A DNA stretch of 10,919 bases from UHGV virus genome UHGV-0088977; one strand, 5' to 3'. Below are positions 2,979 through 7,972 of the stretch, in pieces. Source of the DNA: a virus. Every line of letters starts with the position of its first letter. Positions within the stretch are counted from its first letter, which is position 1. The notes under the pieces are model-generated. The model saw only the letters and a program-made list of their open reading frames with translations. It made no database searches and had not been told where the DNA came from. A program made the translations under genes and the position numbers.

Positions 2979-3803
2979 TCAGGCGGTGAAAGTACCAATA
3001 AAGGTTTCTACTTTGCTGTCCTTGAATTTCTCAACAAGCAGATCACGAAATTCGTTAGCCATTTCTTCCTGCACTGCTTCCAGCTGAATAATGCGCAGAA
3101 CCAGTACAGGACGATCGCCAGTGATAATGCTGAGGCGTAATTTAAATGGACGTTCTTTCAGGCCTTCAAACGGAACGCATTTAAATTCAAATGCCACTGG
3201 CATAATGTCTTTGGTCTTCGCTTCGACAGACTCCATCAGGGAGCGTTTGCCGCTGAAGTCATTATCTTCAAAATCAGCGGTCTGGTTTGCTTCAATCGTG
3301 ATTTTACGGACAGCCGCAGCCGCTTTTGTTGCCTGAATAGCGTCACCATTAGCATCAAAGCCCACAAGGTAGTCGGCCCAGTCTTCAATCCATTCTGCCA
3401 GTGACTTCTGGGAATTACGCTCGCCATTAACAGACAACAGAGCAGAGAACGGTGCTGTCTTTTTCAGTTTGAGAGTGGCGGTGTTATCGGCGTGACCTGG
3501 TTCATCAATAGTACCCAGGTTAAGAACACTGACGGCACGCATATTATCAGCATCGATAAAGCAGCGGGTGCCTTCATCTGCAAGATCTTTAGAATAACAG
3601 GTAAAGTCATCGATGCTGGCAGTGGAAAGCGCACCACGGAAACGGAAGCGATTTAAATTAAATTTTTCCAGATCATGAATGCGAAAATTCTCAGGTAATG
3701 CCACTGCGTCGGCACCAATCTTACTGATAATTTCATTAACACCCTGAGCAGAAATAAGGGCATGGATTTGATTAATTGCGGTTGCGTCTAAGTTCTGAGA
3801 CAT
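2979..3803 (-). CDS. yfdQ: YfdQ-like protein (DUF2303 family), 274 aa
   Basis: Full-length ORF with a GAGGA Shine-Dalgarno 7 nt upstream of the ATG at 3803; size and sequence match my recollection of E. coli CPS-53 YfdQ; same strand and tight spacing with the yfdP-like and yfdR-like genes. Confidence 0.8.
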
Positions 3804-3868: not shown

Positions 3869-4231
3869 TTAACGACCTGCTGCGCGGAGTTTTCCGTCAG
3901 GTTCACCGGCAAGAGTCAGTAATTGTCCCTGGTCTTCCTGCAGAATAGTCAGGCGACCACCGCGATTGACATACATCGGCGTTTCGGTGGTGTCTTCTTC
4001 GGAAATTTTCCCGCGGTTAGTTGGGCGAACATATGAGAGTTTGTGTTTGATTTTCACACGGTTCTCATCAAACGGTTCGATTTCCAGATTGAGTGAGACC
4101 TTCCCTTTGGTTTTCGTGTTCATCACACCGGAAGCGACTTCACTGAGAACTGCGCCGATTTTGGTTTCAAATACGCCGCCGTCCAGCTCCCCGATAAATG
4201 CCTGCACATCAGTACTGCGTTCGCTAGCCAT
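3869..4231 (-). CDS. yfdP: YfdP-like small protein (about 120 aa; MASERSTDVQAFIGELDGG...)
   Basis: The track ORF runs to 4549, but a strong GAGGAG Shine-Dalgarno sits 8 nt upstream of the ATG at 4231, and the upstream extension crosses the GC-rich island with non-protein-like composition. The resulting 120-aa product matches the yfdP size I recall. Confidence 0.7.
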   Translation of the reverse strand: MASERSTDVQAFIGELDGGVFETKIGAVLSEVASGVMNTKTKGKVSLNLEIEPFDENRVKIKHKLSYVRPTNRGKISEEDTTETPMYVNRGGRLTILQEDQGQLLTLAGEPDGKLRAAGR

Positions 4232-4699
4232 TTTGCTGCTCCTCATCATATCGACCCTGCAAGGCCGATTAGTTTCTCCACAAAACAGAGAAGAACACCT
4301 GCGGTGGCAGCCGCCCGGATGGATTGGGTTATGAGCCCGTCGTCCGGTGATGCTCTTCTCTGTTTTGTAAAAAGGACGGTACCAGCCGGAAGCAAGAGTA
4401 CAAACTGGTACCGCCAAGACTACACACAGCATAAAGTTGTGGTGCCGGGTGCCTCCCGGTGCCTGGCGAAGGTTGCACACCAGGCGGGTGGGTATCCACA
4501 GAAGGTCGACTGTCAGCCTCAACCTTAACCCGCGTGCGCTGAGCCGCATTCACCACAACGCTAAGGATTCTCTCTGGTTGAAAATACTTAGCTGTTATGT
4601 GCCTGCTTTTAGCCACATCAGGCGAGGTGGACCTGGTTATTCCCCAACAACAAGGATTCGGTTAATCTGGTTATCCCCAACAACGCAAAAGGAAAAGAA
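4232..4699. promoter_or_regulatory. GC-rich structured non-coding island between the yfdP-like gene and the divergent 144-aa gene; probable divergent promoter and 5'-UTR region, possible ncRNA
   Basis: No convincing coding frame (the overlapping ORFs translate to P/G/S/R-rich low-complexity peptides); imperfect 17-bp inverted repeat 4281-4297/4351-4367 with a perfect 14-bp core; hairpin CCGGG-TGCCT-CCCGG near 4446-4460; GGTGCC direct repeat; CCTGG...CCAGG stem near 4462-4483. Confidence 0.4.
4633..4684 (+). repeat. Tandem direct repeat CTGGTTAT(T)CCCCAACAAC (copies at 4633-4651 and 4667-4684, 34-bp period), with a degenerate third copy at 4551-4580
   Basis: Seen directly; the second copy ends 15 nt before the ATG of the 144-aa gene and abuts its Shine-Dalgarno (AAAAGGA, 4687-4693). 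Confidence 0.6.
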
Positions 4700-5134
4700 A
4701 TGTCCGGTAATATCTATACGCTGTACAAATCCCACTGTGAAAATGTTGGAAAGTATCGGGGCATTGAAATCAGTGGGGTAGTGTCATCAGTCGAAATAAG
4801 CAAAGTTGAATCAAGGGCAACATTACTTACTCTTCTGGACCTTGTCTTACATGAGCACCGGAAGAAATTCGGCACTCCCTATAATCAGTTGAATGGGAAA
4901 AAAGCTCTGGTTCACCTTATTCTGATGAAGCATCACTGGATGCCAAAACAGATTAATGAGATGAAATTTGATGAACTTCTTCTTTCAATTCAGGATGAAC
5001 TCACGCTTGATAAAATAAGCGTAACCGCCCAGAAATTTTTAGATTATCGAGACTGGAGATCACAAATTCATCACTTTGATGATTTTGACGAAAATGAATG
5101 GGATCCTAATTTGTCTGCACAATATCTAAAGTAA
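4700..5134 (+). CDS. Hypothetical protein, 144 aa, AT-rich orphan (moron-like) gene of unknown function
   Basis: Uninterrupted 144-codon ORF in AT-rich DNA; Shine-Dalgarno AAGGA 6 nt upstream of the ATG; opposite orientation to the flanking leftward operon; plus-strand intrinsic terminator downstream at 5372-5397. No recognisable motif by eye. Confidence 0.7.
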   Translation: MSGNIYTLYKSHCENVGKYRGIEISGVVSSVEISKVESRATLLTLLDLVLHEHRKKFGTPYNQLNGKKALVHLILMKHHWMPKQINEMKFDELLLSIQDELTLDKISVTAQKFLDYRDWRSQIHHFDDFDENEWDPNLSAQYLK

Positions 5135-5312
5135 CATCCTGTGATAAAACCGTGATTTCCTGATCCAGTTTTTTTAAGGAGTCTATTGTTTCCTGTCGAT
5201 AAGACAGCACTTCACGAAGCTGGTTTATAGCTGCCAGCTTCTTTGCCATCCACTCGTAAATTTCCTCATTTGTGTATCCGGGTGCGACGATTTTTGGTTC
5301 TGTTTTGTGCAT
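5106..5312 (-). CDS. Hypothetical small protein, 68 aa (MHKTEPKIVAPGYTNEEIYEWMAKK...), hydrophilic and probably helical
   Basis: GAGGAGG Shine-Dalgarno 6 nt upstream of the ATG at 5312; the track's start at 5327 is a TTG that forms part of this SD; the 3' end overlaps the 3' end of the 144-aa gene by 29 nt in convergent orientation. Confidence 0.55.
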   Translation of the reverse strand: MHKTEPKIVAPGYTNEEIYEWMAKKLAAINQLREVLSYRQETIDSLKKLDQEITVLSQDVTLDIVQTN

Positions 5313-5371
5313 TTCACACCTCCTCAAGTTATCAGTTACTTGTTGATGGGGACCAGATTGTTAAAGAGCTA

Positions 5372-5397
5372 AGCGTCCTGTAGGGCGCTTTTTTGTT
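5372..5397 (+). terminator. Rho-independent terminator (stem AGCGTCC/GGGCGCT, loop TGTA, then a T-tract)
   Basis: 7-bp stem including one G-U pair, followed by TTTTT on the plus strand; the complementary strand would carry a C-A mismatch and a poor U-tract, so it is probably plus-strand specific. Confidence 0.6.
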
Positions 5398-5559
5398 GCT
5401 AACGAATCATCCTGGACTTCATATGCCCCAGGCGGCTACTTCGTGGGCGTCCTGCCTGTTCGTTATCTTTGATATAAAATCTAACTTAACTTAGTTATTA
5501 TGGCAAGAGAAAACACCAAACTTTTCTTAGTTCGGTGCCTTAGTTAGAGAAGAGAGGTC

Positions 5560-6186
5560 TTAGAGTTCGTATTGAACTCCTTTGACTACACCAATGATAA
5601 GGCAATTACCATTGATAGGGATGTTGGGATACCGAGGATTTAATGGCACTAAAAACTTTTGAGGGCCATCGATGACTAATTTTTTTACTGTAGCTTCGTT
5701 TGTTCCATCAAGTCGAGCGATGACTATTTTTCCATGACGAGGTTCTGCATCTGGATCTACAATCACTGTTGCGCCTTCTGGTATTGTTGGGAGGCCATTA
5801 GGGTTAGTCATGGAGTCACCTTTAACCTCTAATGCAAATGAGTTATCACCAATCTTTAATGATGTATCTACCCACTTGTCCACTTCACTAAACACTTCTG
5901 CTGCCCTGCACTCAGTAAACTGCCCAGCCTGAACCCACGATATTACAGGAACTCTGCGCATGTTTGTGACGAGTTTGCCTTCAAACTCAGCACCATAAAG
6001 AATGTAATCTATTGACGTATTGAAGAACTTCGCTAATTTCGAAAGTGCCTCCCCACCAGGGGTATTGATGTCTTTCTCCCAGTACCCCACAGCAACGTCG
6101 CTTACTCCACAAAATTTACCCAATTCTTTCTGGGACGTTCCGGTAACTCTTCTCAGAGCTTTTATACGCTGACCAACCGTTTCCAT
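5560..6186 (-). CDS. CI-like prophage repressor, XRE-type HTH fused to an S24 (LexA-like) autopeptidase domain, 208 aa
   Basis: N-terminal HTH (QKELGKFCGVSDVAVGYWEKD); C-terminal GDSM serine motif and VKKL lysine motif as in LexA/lambda CI; divergent from a Cro-like gene. Resembles e14 CohE by position, not verified. Confidence 0.9.
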   Translation of the reverse strand: METVGQRIKALRRVTGTSQKELGKFCGVSDVAVGYWEKDINTPGGEALSKLAKFFNTSIDYILYGAEFEGKLVTNMRRVPVISWVQAGQFTECRAAEVFSEVDKWVDTSLKIGDNSFALEVKGDSMTNPNGLPTIPEGATVIVDPDAEPRHGKIVIARLDGTNEATVKKLVIDGPQKFLVPLNPRYPNIPINGNCLIIGVVKGVQYEL

Positions 6187-6283: not shown

Positions 6284-6484
6284 ATGACAACTGACGATAT
6301 CGAAAGCTACTTCGGCAGTATTGAGAAAGTTGCTGCTTTTTTCGGCATAACAACTGAAGCCGTTTATCAGTGGCGAAACCGTCCGGGCCAGTTAATTCCA
6401 AAAGGACGTGCAGCAGAAGCTGCATATAGAACTTGCGGACGGTTGCCATTTAAACCTGAGCTTTATGAAAAATCTAATGGATAA
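6284..6484 (+). CDS. Cro-like small HTH regulator (66 aa)
   Basis: Small basic protein with an HTH-like segment (VAAFFGITTEAVYQWRNRPGQ); strong Shine-Dalgarno; divergent from the repressor; same length as the e14 Cro-like gene as I recall it. Confidence 0.8.
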   Translation: MTTDDIESYFGSIEKVAAFFGITTEAVYQWRNRPGQLIPKGRAAEAAYRTCGRLPFKPELYEKSNG

Positions 6485-7073
6485 ATCGATTAACAGAAAC
6501 CACAGAACGATGAGGTTAACCGTGGGTAAGCATCACTGGAAAGTAGAAAAACAGCCTGAGTGGTACGTGAAAGCTGTCAGAAAAACTATCGCAGCGTTGC
6601 CGGGTGGTTACGCTGAAGCAGCTGACTGGCTGGATGTAACAGAAAACGCATTATTTAACCGCCTTCGTGCCGATGGCGATCAGATTTTCCCGCTGGGATG
6701 GGCAATGATTTTGCAACGTGCTGGTGGAACTCACTTCATTGCTGACGCTGTGGCGCAGTCTGCAAATGGCGTCTTTGTGTCTCTTCCTGACGTCGAGGAT
6801 GTGGACAACGCCGATATTAACCAGCGCCTGCTGGAAGTCATTGAACAGATTGGCAGTTATTCCAGACAGATTCGTTCGGCAATCGAAGACGGTGTGGTGG
6901 AACCGCATGAGAAGACAGCAATTAACGACGAGCTGTATCTCTCAATTTCGAAGCTGCAGGAGCATGCAGCACTGGTCTACAAAATCTTTTGCATTTCAGA
7001 AAGTAATGACGCCCGCGAGTGTGCAGCTCCGGGCGCCGTGGCGTGTCGTGACTGTGGAGAAACTAACGCATGA
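6465..7073 (+). CDS. Early regulatory protein, YmfL/YdaT-like by position and size (about 200 aa); start uncertain (6465 or 6477)
   Basis: ORF immediately after and overlapping the cro stop, suggesting translational coupling; no clear Shine-Dalgarno; ATGA overlap with the next gene. Assignment rests on synteny with e14 as I recall it. Confidence 0.6.
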
Positions 7074-7408
7074 ACAGTTTAACAACACACTACCGTCGCT
7101 CGCAACTGATTGCGCTTCCTGTACCGGGTGGAAAAGCGAAGGTGGAGTATTGCTATGCAGTTAATGTACCAGGTGACAGGGAAATTGTAACCCACAGCTT
7201 TGCTGAGTGGGCTGTGGGTGATTTCAACCGGCAGAAGGAGACAGTCCTTTGCGACAAGTTAACCGCTGGTTCAAAGATCACTACGGAGTGCCCGTCAGAG
7301 TCATTCGTTGGGAGCCGGAAACACAACGGGTTATCTACCTCCGCGAAGGCTATGAGCATGAGTGCTTCAGCCCGCTCGAACAGTTTCGTCGTAAATTCAG
7401 GGAAATAG
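7070..7408 (+). CDS. ymfM: YmfM-like protein (112 aa)
   Basis: ATGA stop/start overlap with the preceding gene; length equals that of e14 YmfM as I recall it; sequence identity not verified. Confidence 0.55.
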
Positions 7409-7417
7409 AGGTCGGTC

Positions 7418-7972
7418 ATGAGCACTAAATTAACCGGCTATGTATGGGATGGTTGCGCTGCATCAGGCATGAAATTATCCAGCGTGGCAATTATGGCCCG
7501 CCTGGCTGATTTCAGTAATGACGAAGGTGTGTGCTGGCCATCAATTGAAACCATTGCCCGTCAGATTGGCGCGGGGATGAGTACCGTCAGGACGGCTATC
7601 GCACGGCTGGAAGCAGAAGGCTGGTTAACGCGTAAGGCGCGTCGCCAGGGTACGGGGGCAGGCTGTATTGCGCGTGCTGACTTTGAAGCCCGACAACGGG
7701 CGGCGCGGACGGATGAAACCACCTATGTGGTGCAGGGCTGGCGACAGGGTAACGGTACGCTGTGGCAGCCCAACCAGCGGGTGATTGTCTTTGATCCGGT
7801 CTGTGGTTTCGACAATACCGAACTGCTTGTTTCGGAAGTCACGTTTACTCAGGACCAGAACGGCACCCTGACGGAAATCCGTGTCGGCCCGCCTGATGCT
7901 TATCTGCCTGAACCCGAAGCCCCCGGCGCGCGGAAAAAGAAAAAAGCCAGAGTACAGGAGGACCCGTTCTGA
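7418..7972 (+). CDS. Apparently chimeric ORF (184 aa): N-terminal HTH/replication-initiator-like domain joined to a C-terminal fragment resembling the end of a Mu gp44-type baseplate hub protein; probable deletion-fusion
   Basis: N-terminus (SSVAIMARLADFSNDEGVCWPSIETIARQIGAGMSTVRTAIARLEAEGWL) looks like a phage O/HTH protein; the composition changes around residue 95, and the C-terminus runs straight into the baseplate V gene with TGATG stop/start coupling. Confidence 0.6.
   Translation: MSTKLTGYVWDGCAASGMKLSSVAIMARLADFSNDEGVCWPSIETIARQIGAGMSTVRTAIARLEAEGWLTRKARRQGTGAGCIARADFEARQRAARTDETTYVVQGWRQGNGTLWQPNQRVIVFDPVCGFDNTELLVSEVTFTQDQNGTLTEIRVGPPDAYLPEPEAPGARKKKKARVQEDPF

Follow-up and report, generated by a model that had tools for sequence, protein, structure and literature searches.

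In Escherichia coli K1 strain RS218, the intergenic region upstream of yfdP in a mEp460-like prophage encodes sRNA-17, a small RNA of 193 nt defined by 5′ and 3′ rapid amplification of cDNA ends and by Northern blotting, which is induced in stationary phase, has an upstream fragment bound by phosphorylated ArcA, and is associated on deletion with increases in yfdP (log2 fold change 6.6) and yfdR; no Rfam relative was found by its authors (Front Microbiol 2020;11:574833, PMC7719688). STnc100 (Rfam accession: RF02076) is an abundant multi-copy family of prophage small RNAs of unknown function, with eleven expressed copies in EDL933, one of them confirmed by Northern blotting, and has been linked to the Hfq-associated PasD RNAs in a 2026 preprint. 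A third small RNA, DicF, is produced from the dicB operon by intrinsic termination together with RNase E and RNase III processing. Here, these systems are compared with a GC-rich island at positions 4232–4699 of the virus genome UHGV-0088977 (10,919 nt, the whole stretch analysed, hereafter the window), situated between yfdP on the minus strand and a gene of 144 amino acids on the plus strand. With a rough probability of 0.72, the island is read as a conserved, modular structured RNA encoded on the minus strand, comprising a small RNA of ~192 nt and a structured leader that heads the early-left operon.

Folding, conservation and covariation of the island

A first-pass annotation, made from the letters of the window, had singled out the island as GC-rich, devoid of a credible coding frame and dense in potential secondary structure, and had offered a structured RNA (leader or small RNA), a decayed upstream gene or a recombination scar as explanations. 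The composition is as described, with a GC content of 0.53–0.585 in 4201–4500 versus 0.355–0.42 in 4701–5200. Folded as minus-strand RNA, positions 4232–4620 (389 nt) reach a minimum free energy of −169.2 kcal/mol (z = −6.5, with none of 100 shuffles as good), a density of structure beyond chance, whereas the plus strand gives a z-score of only −2.7. The inverted repeat that had been emphasised is real, the 17-bp arms and 14-bp perfect core first given for it being slightly conservative: a repeat search returns arms of 25 nt (4280–4304 and 4344–4368; 84% complementary, 39 nt apart) with a perfect core of 15 bp (4280–4294 with 4354–4368), and the hairpin 4276–4373 folds as RNA at −49.3 kcal/mol (z = −7.7; stability unmatched in 200 shuffles). 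Also present are the CCGGG-TGCCT-CCCGG (4445–4459) and CCTGG...CCAGG (4461–4485) hairpins and the GGTGCC repeats (repeat family D15), all of which are helices of the RNA core described below. Strand-specific folding, covariation, a near-threshold match to STnc100, and ends and position in common with sRNA-17 bear out the structured RNA with a change of emphasis, in that the inverted repeat is a leader hairpin lying past the terminator, and the small RNA itself, at 4369–4560, is made from what had been listed as further hairpins.

Homologues were drawn from phage records, contigs of one genome per species and IMG/VR, and comprise E. coli, Salmonella ST64B-type, Buttiauxella plus Pantoea and mEp460-type clades, together with a clade carrying another downstream gene (group C). 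Read on the yfdP-sense strand, their common order is a 5′ hairpin, a core with GUUGUGGUG/CACCACAAC as its closing stem, a short linker, and a terminator hairpin with its U tract, followed by a hairpin of 20–25 bp, a GUGGAGA(A/U)AC box, a small hairpin with a UUGCAG-type loop, and the ribosome-binding site of the next gene. The module always heads a leftward operon, the next gene being yfdP, a yfdR-like gene (SfII), xisE (e14) or another gene (group C).

Covariation was assessed for a hand-drawn structure of 100 pairs on an alignment of 24 distinct homologues, with controls in which the pairing partners were slid by 1–3 columns; the small hairpin is mapped one column off in this count, its clade-specific stems being evident in a separate listing. 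Paired cells amount to 85.7%, versus 37–48% in the slid controls, pairs changed on both sides to 28 versus 9–17, and the covariation score to 0.197 versus 0.05–0.09, with 0 of 500 shuffles reaching either the observed pairing percentage or the observed score. Comparative folding across homologous prophages, which had been proposed as a check, therefore finds helices that keep pairing through compensatory changes. Four pairs of the terminator stem have changed on both sides across clades, the stem being CGGUACCAG/CUGGUACCG in E. coli, GUCGGCGUC/GACGCCGAC in Salmonella and GGCGGCACC/GGUGCCGU in group C; the stem of the long hairpin is 93.9% paired, with five pairs changed on both sides; and in the helix 4485–4461 three of the four counted pairs are changed on both sides. 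The group C long hairpin, CAUAGAUGCAAGCGCGCUCCGG/CCGGAGCGCGCUUACAUCUGUG, keeps its stem with no sequence in common with the window, and in one clade the terminator, long-hairpin and 4485–4461 stems have been replaced wholesale. The closing stem is invariant across the E. coli, Salmonella and group C sequences. The island is conserved at the level of RNA, with a defined strand and architecture, and is homologous to the STnc100 core and to sRNA-17.

These comparisons bear directly on the proposal that the island is an element of DNA only, which could be a set of divergent promoters with operators, a palindrome bound by a protein or the scar of a recombination event. Its site between divergent genes, mosaic junctions near 4255–4269, 4411–4417, 4575, 4630 and 4684, and direct repeats at 4626–4678 are in keeping with such an element, but folding is strand-asymmetric with G–U pairs that work on the minus strand only, compensatory changes maintain helices of unrelated sequence, and the homologue sRNA-17 is a mapped transcript. 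Moreover, the divergent promoters that the island had been expected to carry are unconfirmed, with no consensus promoter, scored as a sigma-70-like site of at least 8/12 matches, on either strand within 4540–4760. A purely DNA-level function is accordingly considered extremely unlikely.

Architecture of the minus-strand module

At the upstream end of the module, a flanking hairpin (GCUAAG...CUUAGC, 4560–4592 on the minus strand, as are all elements of this section unless stated; −10.6 kcal/mol, z = −5.6) abuts the 5′ end of the small RNA, and other clades carry a different hairpin or helix in the same place. The small RNA of ~192 nt (4369–4560), the counterpart of sRNA-17, consists of core, linker and terminator. 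Its STnc100-like multi-helix core (4436–4559), delimited by Rfam alignment and covariation, is closed by a stem of 4559–4551 with 4444–4436 and contains the inner helices 4485–4461 and 4459–4445, together with a probable long-range helix of 4532–4528 with 4489–4485. Between core and terminator lies a single-stranded linker, UUUAUGCUGUGUGUAGUCUU (4416–4435), a variable cassette that has been swapped between otherwise identical alleles, as in two contigs (L236 and L174) that carry the sRNA-17 linker on a window-type core; such swapping is as expected of a seed, and the linker is a candidate seed region for which no target can be named. The intrinsic terminator (4369–4415) is predicted by folding as a stem of 11–13 bp, 4415–4405 with 4385–4375, followed by U5 at 4373–4369 (−20.5 kcal/mol, z = −5.3).

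Beyond the terminator, the long leader hairpin (4276–4373) has a stem of 20–25 bp, 4368–4349 with 4299–4280, and a branched apex, and its G–U pairs exist on the minus strand only; by the classical size of such substrates it would be a target of RNase III. It is followed by the Shine-Dalgarno-like box GUGGAGAAAC (4272–4281), which is invariant or nearly so in all clades and is kept even in those lacking the terminator and long hairpin, and by a small hairpin of 7–8 bp with a UUGCAG-type loop (4250–4269; −10.4 kcal/mol, z = −3.8) just before the Shine-Dalgarno sequence of yfdP, in which the stem sequences vary by clade while hairpin and loop motif persist. A leader peptide initiated at the GUG of the GGAGAAAC box was considered and rejected, the frame being unconserved and having no Shine-Dalgarno sequence; in some Salmonella alleles a 1-nt indel fuses this frame to yfdP. 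A tRNA-like identity, suggested by a CACCA motif and, in the Buttiauxella relatives, by hairpins resembling a T-loop, was likewise discarded, with ARAGORN finding no such RNA in the window.

The box also has a near-identical counterpart of 14–15 nt in the translation start region of a ymfM-like gene (7053–7068). The 14-mer UGUGGAGAAACUAA of the yfdP leader (4269–4283, minus strand) recurs there on the plus strand, where it overlaps the end of ymfL and forms the ribosome-binding region of that gene (ATG at 7070), and it resembles the ftsZ start region GGAGAGAAACUAUG. The repeat could represent a shared regulatory target or a relic, and chance is not improbable for a 14-mer in 11 kb.

Relationship to sRNA-17 and STnc100

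For comparison with the window, the sRNA-17 sequence was rebuilt from the published primers and phage mEp460, in which it is delimited at 194 nt. Its primer-placed ends fall at the homologous CGUUGUGGUG (5′) and at the terminator U tract (3′), such that on mEp460 it runs from CGUUGUGGUGAAUGCG... to the GGCGGUACCAG...CUGGUACCGCUCUUUU terminator, and its 3′-end hairpin, GGCGGUACCAG...CUGGUACCG with a U tract, recurs in the window. Both RNAs lie directly ahead of yfdP, on its sense strand, in a prophage of mEp460/SfV type; the window counterpart ends at 4560 and 4369, giving 192 nt against 193, with 16 of 17 nt identical at the 5′ end (CGUUGUGGUGAAUGCG), the same closing stem (GUUGUGGUG/CACCACAAC), and 45 of 48 nt identical in the terminator. 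Overall identity is, in contrast, 65%: the window has an STnc100-type CCGGGAGGCACCCGG hairpin where sRNA-17 has CCGGAGAUCAGCACCGG, the linker is another one, and the ArcA-bound ‘promoter’ fragment, like the rest of the upstream flank, is not conserved. The same ends, length, closing stem and terminator combined with a different interior and linker therefore identify the window sequence as a mosaic allele of sRNA-17 with an STnc100-type interior. A megablast search with sRNA-17 covers only the 3′ third in genomes of the window type, and the window allele outnumbers full-length sRNA-17 about threefold, with 1830 of 5426 complete E. coli genomes carrying it versus 586. Tandem copies also occur, with a 5′ fragment of sRNA-17 type ~630 bp upstream of a window-type copy (L163:8349 and 8977 among such contigs).

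Scanned with Rfam in gathering mode, the whole window returns no hit for any family, but a permissive scan aligns the full length of the STnc100 model (1–206 of 206) to window 4366–4589 on the minus strand at 43.5 bits (E = 3.9e-8), so that the covariance-model search put forward as a check yields a near-threshold match, with relatives in SfV (39.5 bits), SfII (39.5) and ST64B (35.1). The alignment to the model includes the GGUGAAU junction (UGGUGAAU) and the CACCGGGAGGCACCCGGCACCA motif, and in both cases a multi-helix core closed by a long stem is followed by a variable stretch and an intrinsic terminator; a core 20-mer, CCGGGAGGCACCCGGCACCA, is common to more than 120 enterobacterial loci. 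Differences are found in the first inner hairpin and in the genomic setting: the window copy belongs to the early-left operon, between the repressor region and yfdP, and is followed by the long leader hairpin and a coding operon, whereas canonical STnc100 members are located in the late region of lambdoid and Stx prophages near Q, stx and esterase genes. Arrays of two to three STnc100-type cores, spaced by 220–270 nt, are seen in several enterobacterial genomes; contigs noted for tandem copies or core arrays are L163, L240, L176, L037, L038 and L049 (the last three labelled Superficieibacter).

Coding potential

Over the same sequence, automated annotation has called proteins and pseudogenes. 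In strain ML35 the Prokaryotic Genome Annotation Pipeline (PGAP) labels the equivalent of window 4246–4556 a pseudogene, ‘frameshifted hypothetical protein’; a ymfH open reading frame (ORF) of 103 codons is intact over the same sequence in the K-12 prophage e14; and two ORFs of the island match PHROG clusters 3651 and 33599. Each could be taken as support for a decayed or genuine YmfH-like protein gene, or for an N-terminal extension of YfdP as in SfIV_34. The clusters, however, have no assigned function and gather unannotated ORF calls from close phages, one member of which, cdtI orf40 (L129), is antisense to yfdP, and they seem to have been built from ORF calls over the RNA. Deposited annotations more widely either stretch yfdP upstream over the RNA (SfIV_34 in L002; a 178-residue ‘YfdP’ of As1, L003) or call antisense ORFs.

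Against a protein stand several independent properties of the sequence. No ORF of the island has a Pfam match; substitutions are flat across codon phases (28/30/30, 48/52/49 and 32/34/31 for the window versus the Salmonella ST64B, group C and mEp460 homologues, respectively); and indel lengths between homologues include 1, 4 and 20 nt. An ORF of ymfH length (100 or 103 codons) is intact in only 5 of 119 homologous loci, in most of which it ends after 75 codons or far fewer, and the ymfH start codon lies inside the helix of the closing stem, without a Shine-Dalgarno sequence. Covariation of the helices speaks against the same proposal. On this evidence the ymfH ORF is incidental and the RefSeq protein and pseudogene calls are wrong; a protein gene at this site is thus very hard to credit. 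Of the earlier claims, the absence of a credible coding frame is upheld and the suggestion of a decayed upstream gene is rejected despite the pseudogene call.

Transcription, termination and proposed function

Besides a predicted early-left promoter (TTGCCA-17-TAGATT, 5478–5506, minus strand) adjoining the repressor gene, the only minus-strand promoter candidate upstream of the RNA is TTGGCA-16-CAGAAT (4946–4919, 9/12 matches), antisense inside the 144-residue ORF, which could drive the small RNA in lysogens or be a chance match. At the homologous early-left position, ST64B and Buttiauxella have operator-like repeats and well-matched −35 and −10 elements. The RNA of SfV lies behind a co-oriented gene, orf33, and is therefore intra-operonic there, needing no promoter of its own; in the window orf33 is replaced by the oppositely oriented 144-residue gene. 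The e14 genes ymfH, xisE and intE of K-12 belong to the e14-induction (YmfT) iModulon, which, together with the sparse activity of the ymfH upstream region in a Reg-Seq study, fits control from a distant early promoter. The mapped 5′ end of sRNA-17 is the first base before the closing stem, and conserved helices lie immediately upstream of it (the 4592–4560 hairpin in the window; a GAUGAGAGCA...UGCUCUC helix in mEp460 and Buttiauxella); given these abutting helices and the lack of a nearby consensus promoter, we infer that the 5′ end is processed rather than primary. At the other end, the 4415–4375 hairpin with its U5 tract very probably terminates transcription and defines the small RNA, because it coincides with the mapped 3′ end of sRNA-17.

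A scheme can be proposed from these elements that covers expression of the window allele, the origin of its 5′ end, RNase III cleavage and gating. Transcripts would enter from the repressor-controlled early-left promoter at 5506–5478 or from a weak local promoter, and most would stop at the terminator (4415–4369), trimming at the base of the closing stem then leaving a stable RNA of ~192 nt that may act on targets in trans. Read-through transcripts would carry the 20–25 bp hairpin, likely a target of RNase III, the GGAGAAAC box, the small hairpin and the yfdP ribosome-binding site. The module may in this way have a dual role, in which a small RNA is made while the recombination and excision genes are gated or insulated, as proposed by analogy with the DicF terminator and processing sites in the Qin dicB operon. 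The rise of yfdP and yfdR on deletion of sRNA-17 in RS218 shows that yfdP is reached by transcription coming from the locus of the small RNA, unless it stems from the deletion construct itself.

Several observations weigh against a small RNA coupled to a gated leader. That same rise may, judging from primer design, reflect transcription out of the resistance cassette and not the loss of a gate. The STnc100 score falls below the gathering score of 47; the interior of ~100 nt is only ~66% identical to sRNA-17 (65 of 98 aligned positions); a terminator scan did not return the 4415–4375 hairpin, its loop being longer than the limit of the scan; the 4540–4760 interval is without a consensus promoter at the threshold given above; and the region upstream of ymfH in K-12 was active in 1 of 39 conditions in the Reg-Seq study. 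The Buttiauxella and Pantoea relatives, finally, have neither terminator nor long hairpin, and the gate is not universal.

In those two genera the core leads directly to the box and the next gene, and it may therefore also, or primarily, act in cis. Taken to its conclusion, the module would act in cis alone: the ‘small RNA’ would be a by-product, and the core would be conserved as a leader element of the next gene, which might serve as a 5′ stabiliser or processing signal, or as an RNA that modifies polymerase or recruits Nus factors for passage through terminators. The cores of Qin and Buttiauxella, which lie shortly before a gene start with no terminator between, favour this alternative, as do the constant position of the module at the head of a leftward operon, a boxA-like UGCUCUC before the core in several clades, and the lack of a recognisable N gene in these phages. 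Conversely, an efficient-looking terminator follows the core in the E. coli, Salmonella and group C clades, the homologous sRNA-17 accumulates as a discrete species of 193 nt, canonical STnc100/PasD RNAs are Hfq-associated and stand alone, and the window has only a poor version of the boxA-like motif, situated inside a helix. A purely cis-acting module is on balance unlikely, and a small RNA with a structured leader is preferred.

Just downstream of the predicted early-left promoter, a conserved two-hairpin RNA element of ~65 nt (AACGAACAGGCAGGACGCCCACGAAGUAGCCGCCUGGGGCAUAUGAAGUCCAGGAUGAUUCGUU, 5400–5467, minus strand) has 49 distinct variants behind at least six different promoter/operator sequences, with covariation of the outer stem and second hairpin and no match in Rfam. 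It has CGAAC(A)GGC and AGGAUGA in common with HK022 putL and putR, in the same order and at similar spacing, and the alignment to putL/putR does not rise above shuffles (p ~0.3); the element is a candidate antiterminator or nut-like element. A more far-reaching proposal, of rather low probability, is that the STnc100-type core is a cis module marking the starts of early-left operons (yfdP, xisE-intE and dicB), and forms with the put-like 5467–5400 element an RNA-only termination/antitermination gate in SfV/e14/ST64B-type phages that lack N. Under such an arrangement only polymerase modified near the promoter would pass the terminator, all other transcription would end as small RNA, and sRNA-17, STnc100/PasD, the dicB leader and ‘ymfH’ would constitute one RNA superfamily.

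Prophage context

The element in which the window lies is an E. coli prophage of SfV/SfIV/e14 type. Its early-left operon, yfdP-yfdQ-yfdR-xis-int (xisE-intE in K-12 e14), occupies the minus strand, with yfdP at 3869–4231 (120 residues, which is the conserved form; ATG at 4231–4229, Shine-Dalgarno GAGGAG at 4244–4239), yfdQ at 2979–3803, int at 906–2033, and yfdR and xis between yfdQ and int. Across the island, the 144-residue gene of the ECs1072 family (4700–5134, plus strand) is followed on the minus strand by a 68-residue gene and a LexA-family repressor gene (5560–6186), and then on the plus strand by cro and ymfL. The 144- and 68-residue genes are convergent and overlap by 29 nt (5106–5134), and a strong plus-strand terminator, AAGCGTCCTGTAGGGCGCTTTTTTG, is found at 5371–5400, beyond the 68-residue gene; the transcript of the 144-residue gene would therefore be antisense to the whole 68-residue gene.

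The spacer before the 144-residue gene (4593–4699, assigned to neither strand) contains a mosaic junction near 4630 and two 19-nt direct repeats at 4626–4644 (GGTGGACCTGGTTATTCCC) and 4660–4678 (GGTTAATCTGGTTATCCCC), 34 nt apart, which may be a regulator-binding site; the segment 4592–4684 is common to the window and Klebsiella phages. In mEp460, SfV and ST64B, an isrK-like RNA and a C4 antisense RNA follow ymfL in the early-right operon, and neither was found in the window by Rfam scanning in gathering mode. Comparison of ~6400–7600 with three related sequences (L004, L005 and L006) places baseplate genes almost directly behind the early-right genes of the window, and the prophage is therefore deleted and defective.

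Comparison with dicF–dicB, ymfH and put

Within K-12, the Qin spacer between the DicF terminator and dicB contains a homologous core, GUGAUGUGGUGAAUGCGGCUGAGCGCACGCGG...CACCUGGAGGCACCAGGCACUGCAUCAC (L252:2433–2642), which matches STnc100 at 34.4 bits (E = 1.2e-5). Its closing stem covaries, GUGAUGUGGUG pairing with CACUGCAUCAC, and the CCUGG/CCAGG hairpin is also compensated. The core ends ~25 nt before the dicB start, and that of Buttiauxella ~65 nt before the yfdP start, with no terminator between. A reported 72-nt RNase III form of DicF would end ~19 nt past the terminator, by our own count inside the 5′ strand of the closing stem of the Qin core. Both loci have similar terminator hairpins and an intra-operonic small RNA in an operon of early-left type, made in Qin, and probably in the window, by intrinsic termination and RNase processing. 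The order is reversed, however: Qin has DicF with its terminator ahead of the core, whereas in the window the core precedes the terminator.

The same resemblance raises the question of whether the window RNA is itself a DicF-type inhibitor of cell division that pairs with the ftsZ ribosome-binding site. Its position within an early-left operon is comparable, and its terminator hairpin is DicF-like (GGCGGUACCAGUUUGUACUCU versus GGCGGUAUCAGUUUUACUCC), but the Rfam DicF model (RF00039) gives 19.9 bits, far below its gathering score of 48, and reflects a weak likeness of the terminator hairpin. Pairing of the loop with the ftsZ start reaches −9.8 kcal/mol, not above shuffles (fraction 0.74), against −14.4 kcal/mol (0.05) for DicF itself, and neither the Salmonella clade nor group C conserves the loop. 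DicF has 53 nt and pairs with ftsZ, a pairing not predicted for the window RNA, and a DicF-type function is very unlikely.

In e14 of K-12 (1,201,069–1,201,420), the whole module from 5′ hairpin to small hairpin is ~93% identical to that of the window, bears the gene name ymfH (b1142) and stands directly upstream of xisE-intE. Overexpression of ymfH has been reported in a preprint to trigger the RcaT toxin of retron-Sen2. The annotated ymfH (L254:5070–5381) is the homologue of window 4246–4556, and a ymfH clone would express most of the structured RNA; since the ORF is apparently spurious, the retron-Sen2 trigger may be the RNA. The yfdO–yfdP spacer of K-12 CPS-53, considered as a further homologue, is unrelated and carries replication-origin iterons.

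The put RNAs of HK022 and the nut sites of lambda offer a broader parallel as structured RNAs that stand ahead of terminators near the start of the early-left operon in lambdoid phages. The put type, of ~70 nt with two stem-loops, lies just downstream of the promoter, whereas ~900 nt separate the island from the predicted early-left promoter, and it matches neither the put RNAs nor the nut sites in sequence or structure; a put-like identity was rejected for want of similarity to putL or putR.

Re-labelling the island as an RNA gene with a leader corrects the RefSeq annotation in about a third of complete E. coli genomes and places the virulence-linked sRNA-17 in the STnc100 family. The presence of the core in the classic dicF-dicB locus makes e14 and Qin of K-12 a tractable system for the STnc100-type family, and the combination of terminator and leader suggests how prophages of e14/SfV type silence int, xis and recombination genes without an N of lambda type. 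Compared with known systems, the locus belongs to kinds already described, being an allele of sRNA-17 that is related to STnc100 below threshold and has an architecture like that of dicF–dicB; what is new is modest, and consists of the link between sRNA-17, STnc100, dicF–dicB and ymfH, evidence against the RefSeq protein and pseudogene calls, and a detailed architecture backed by covariation.

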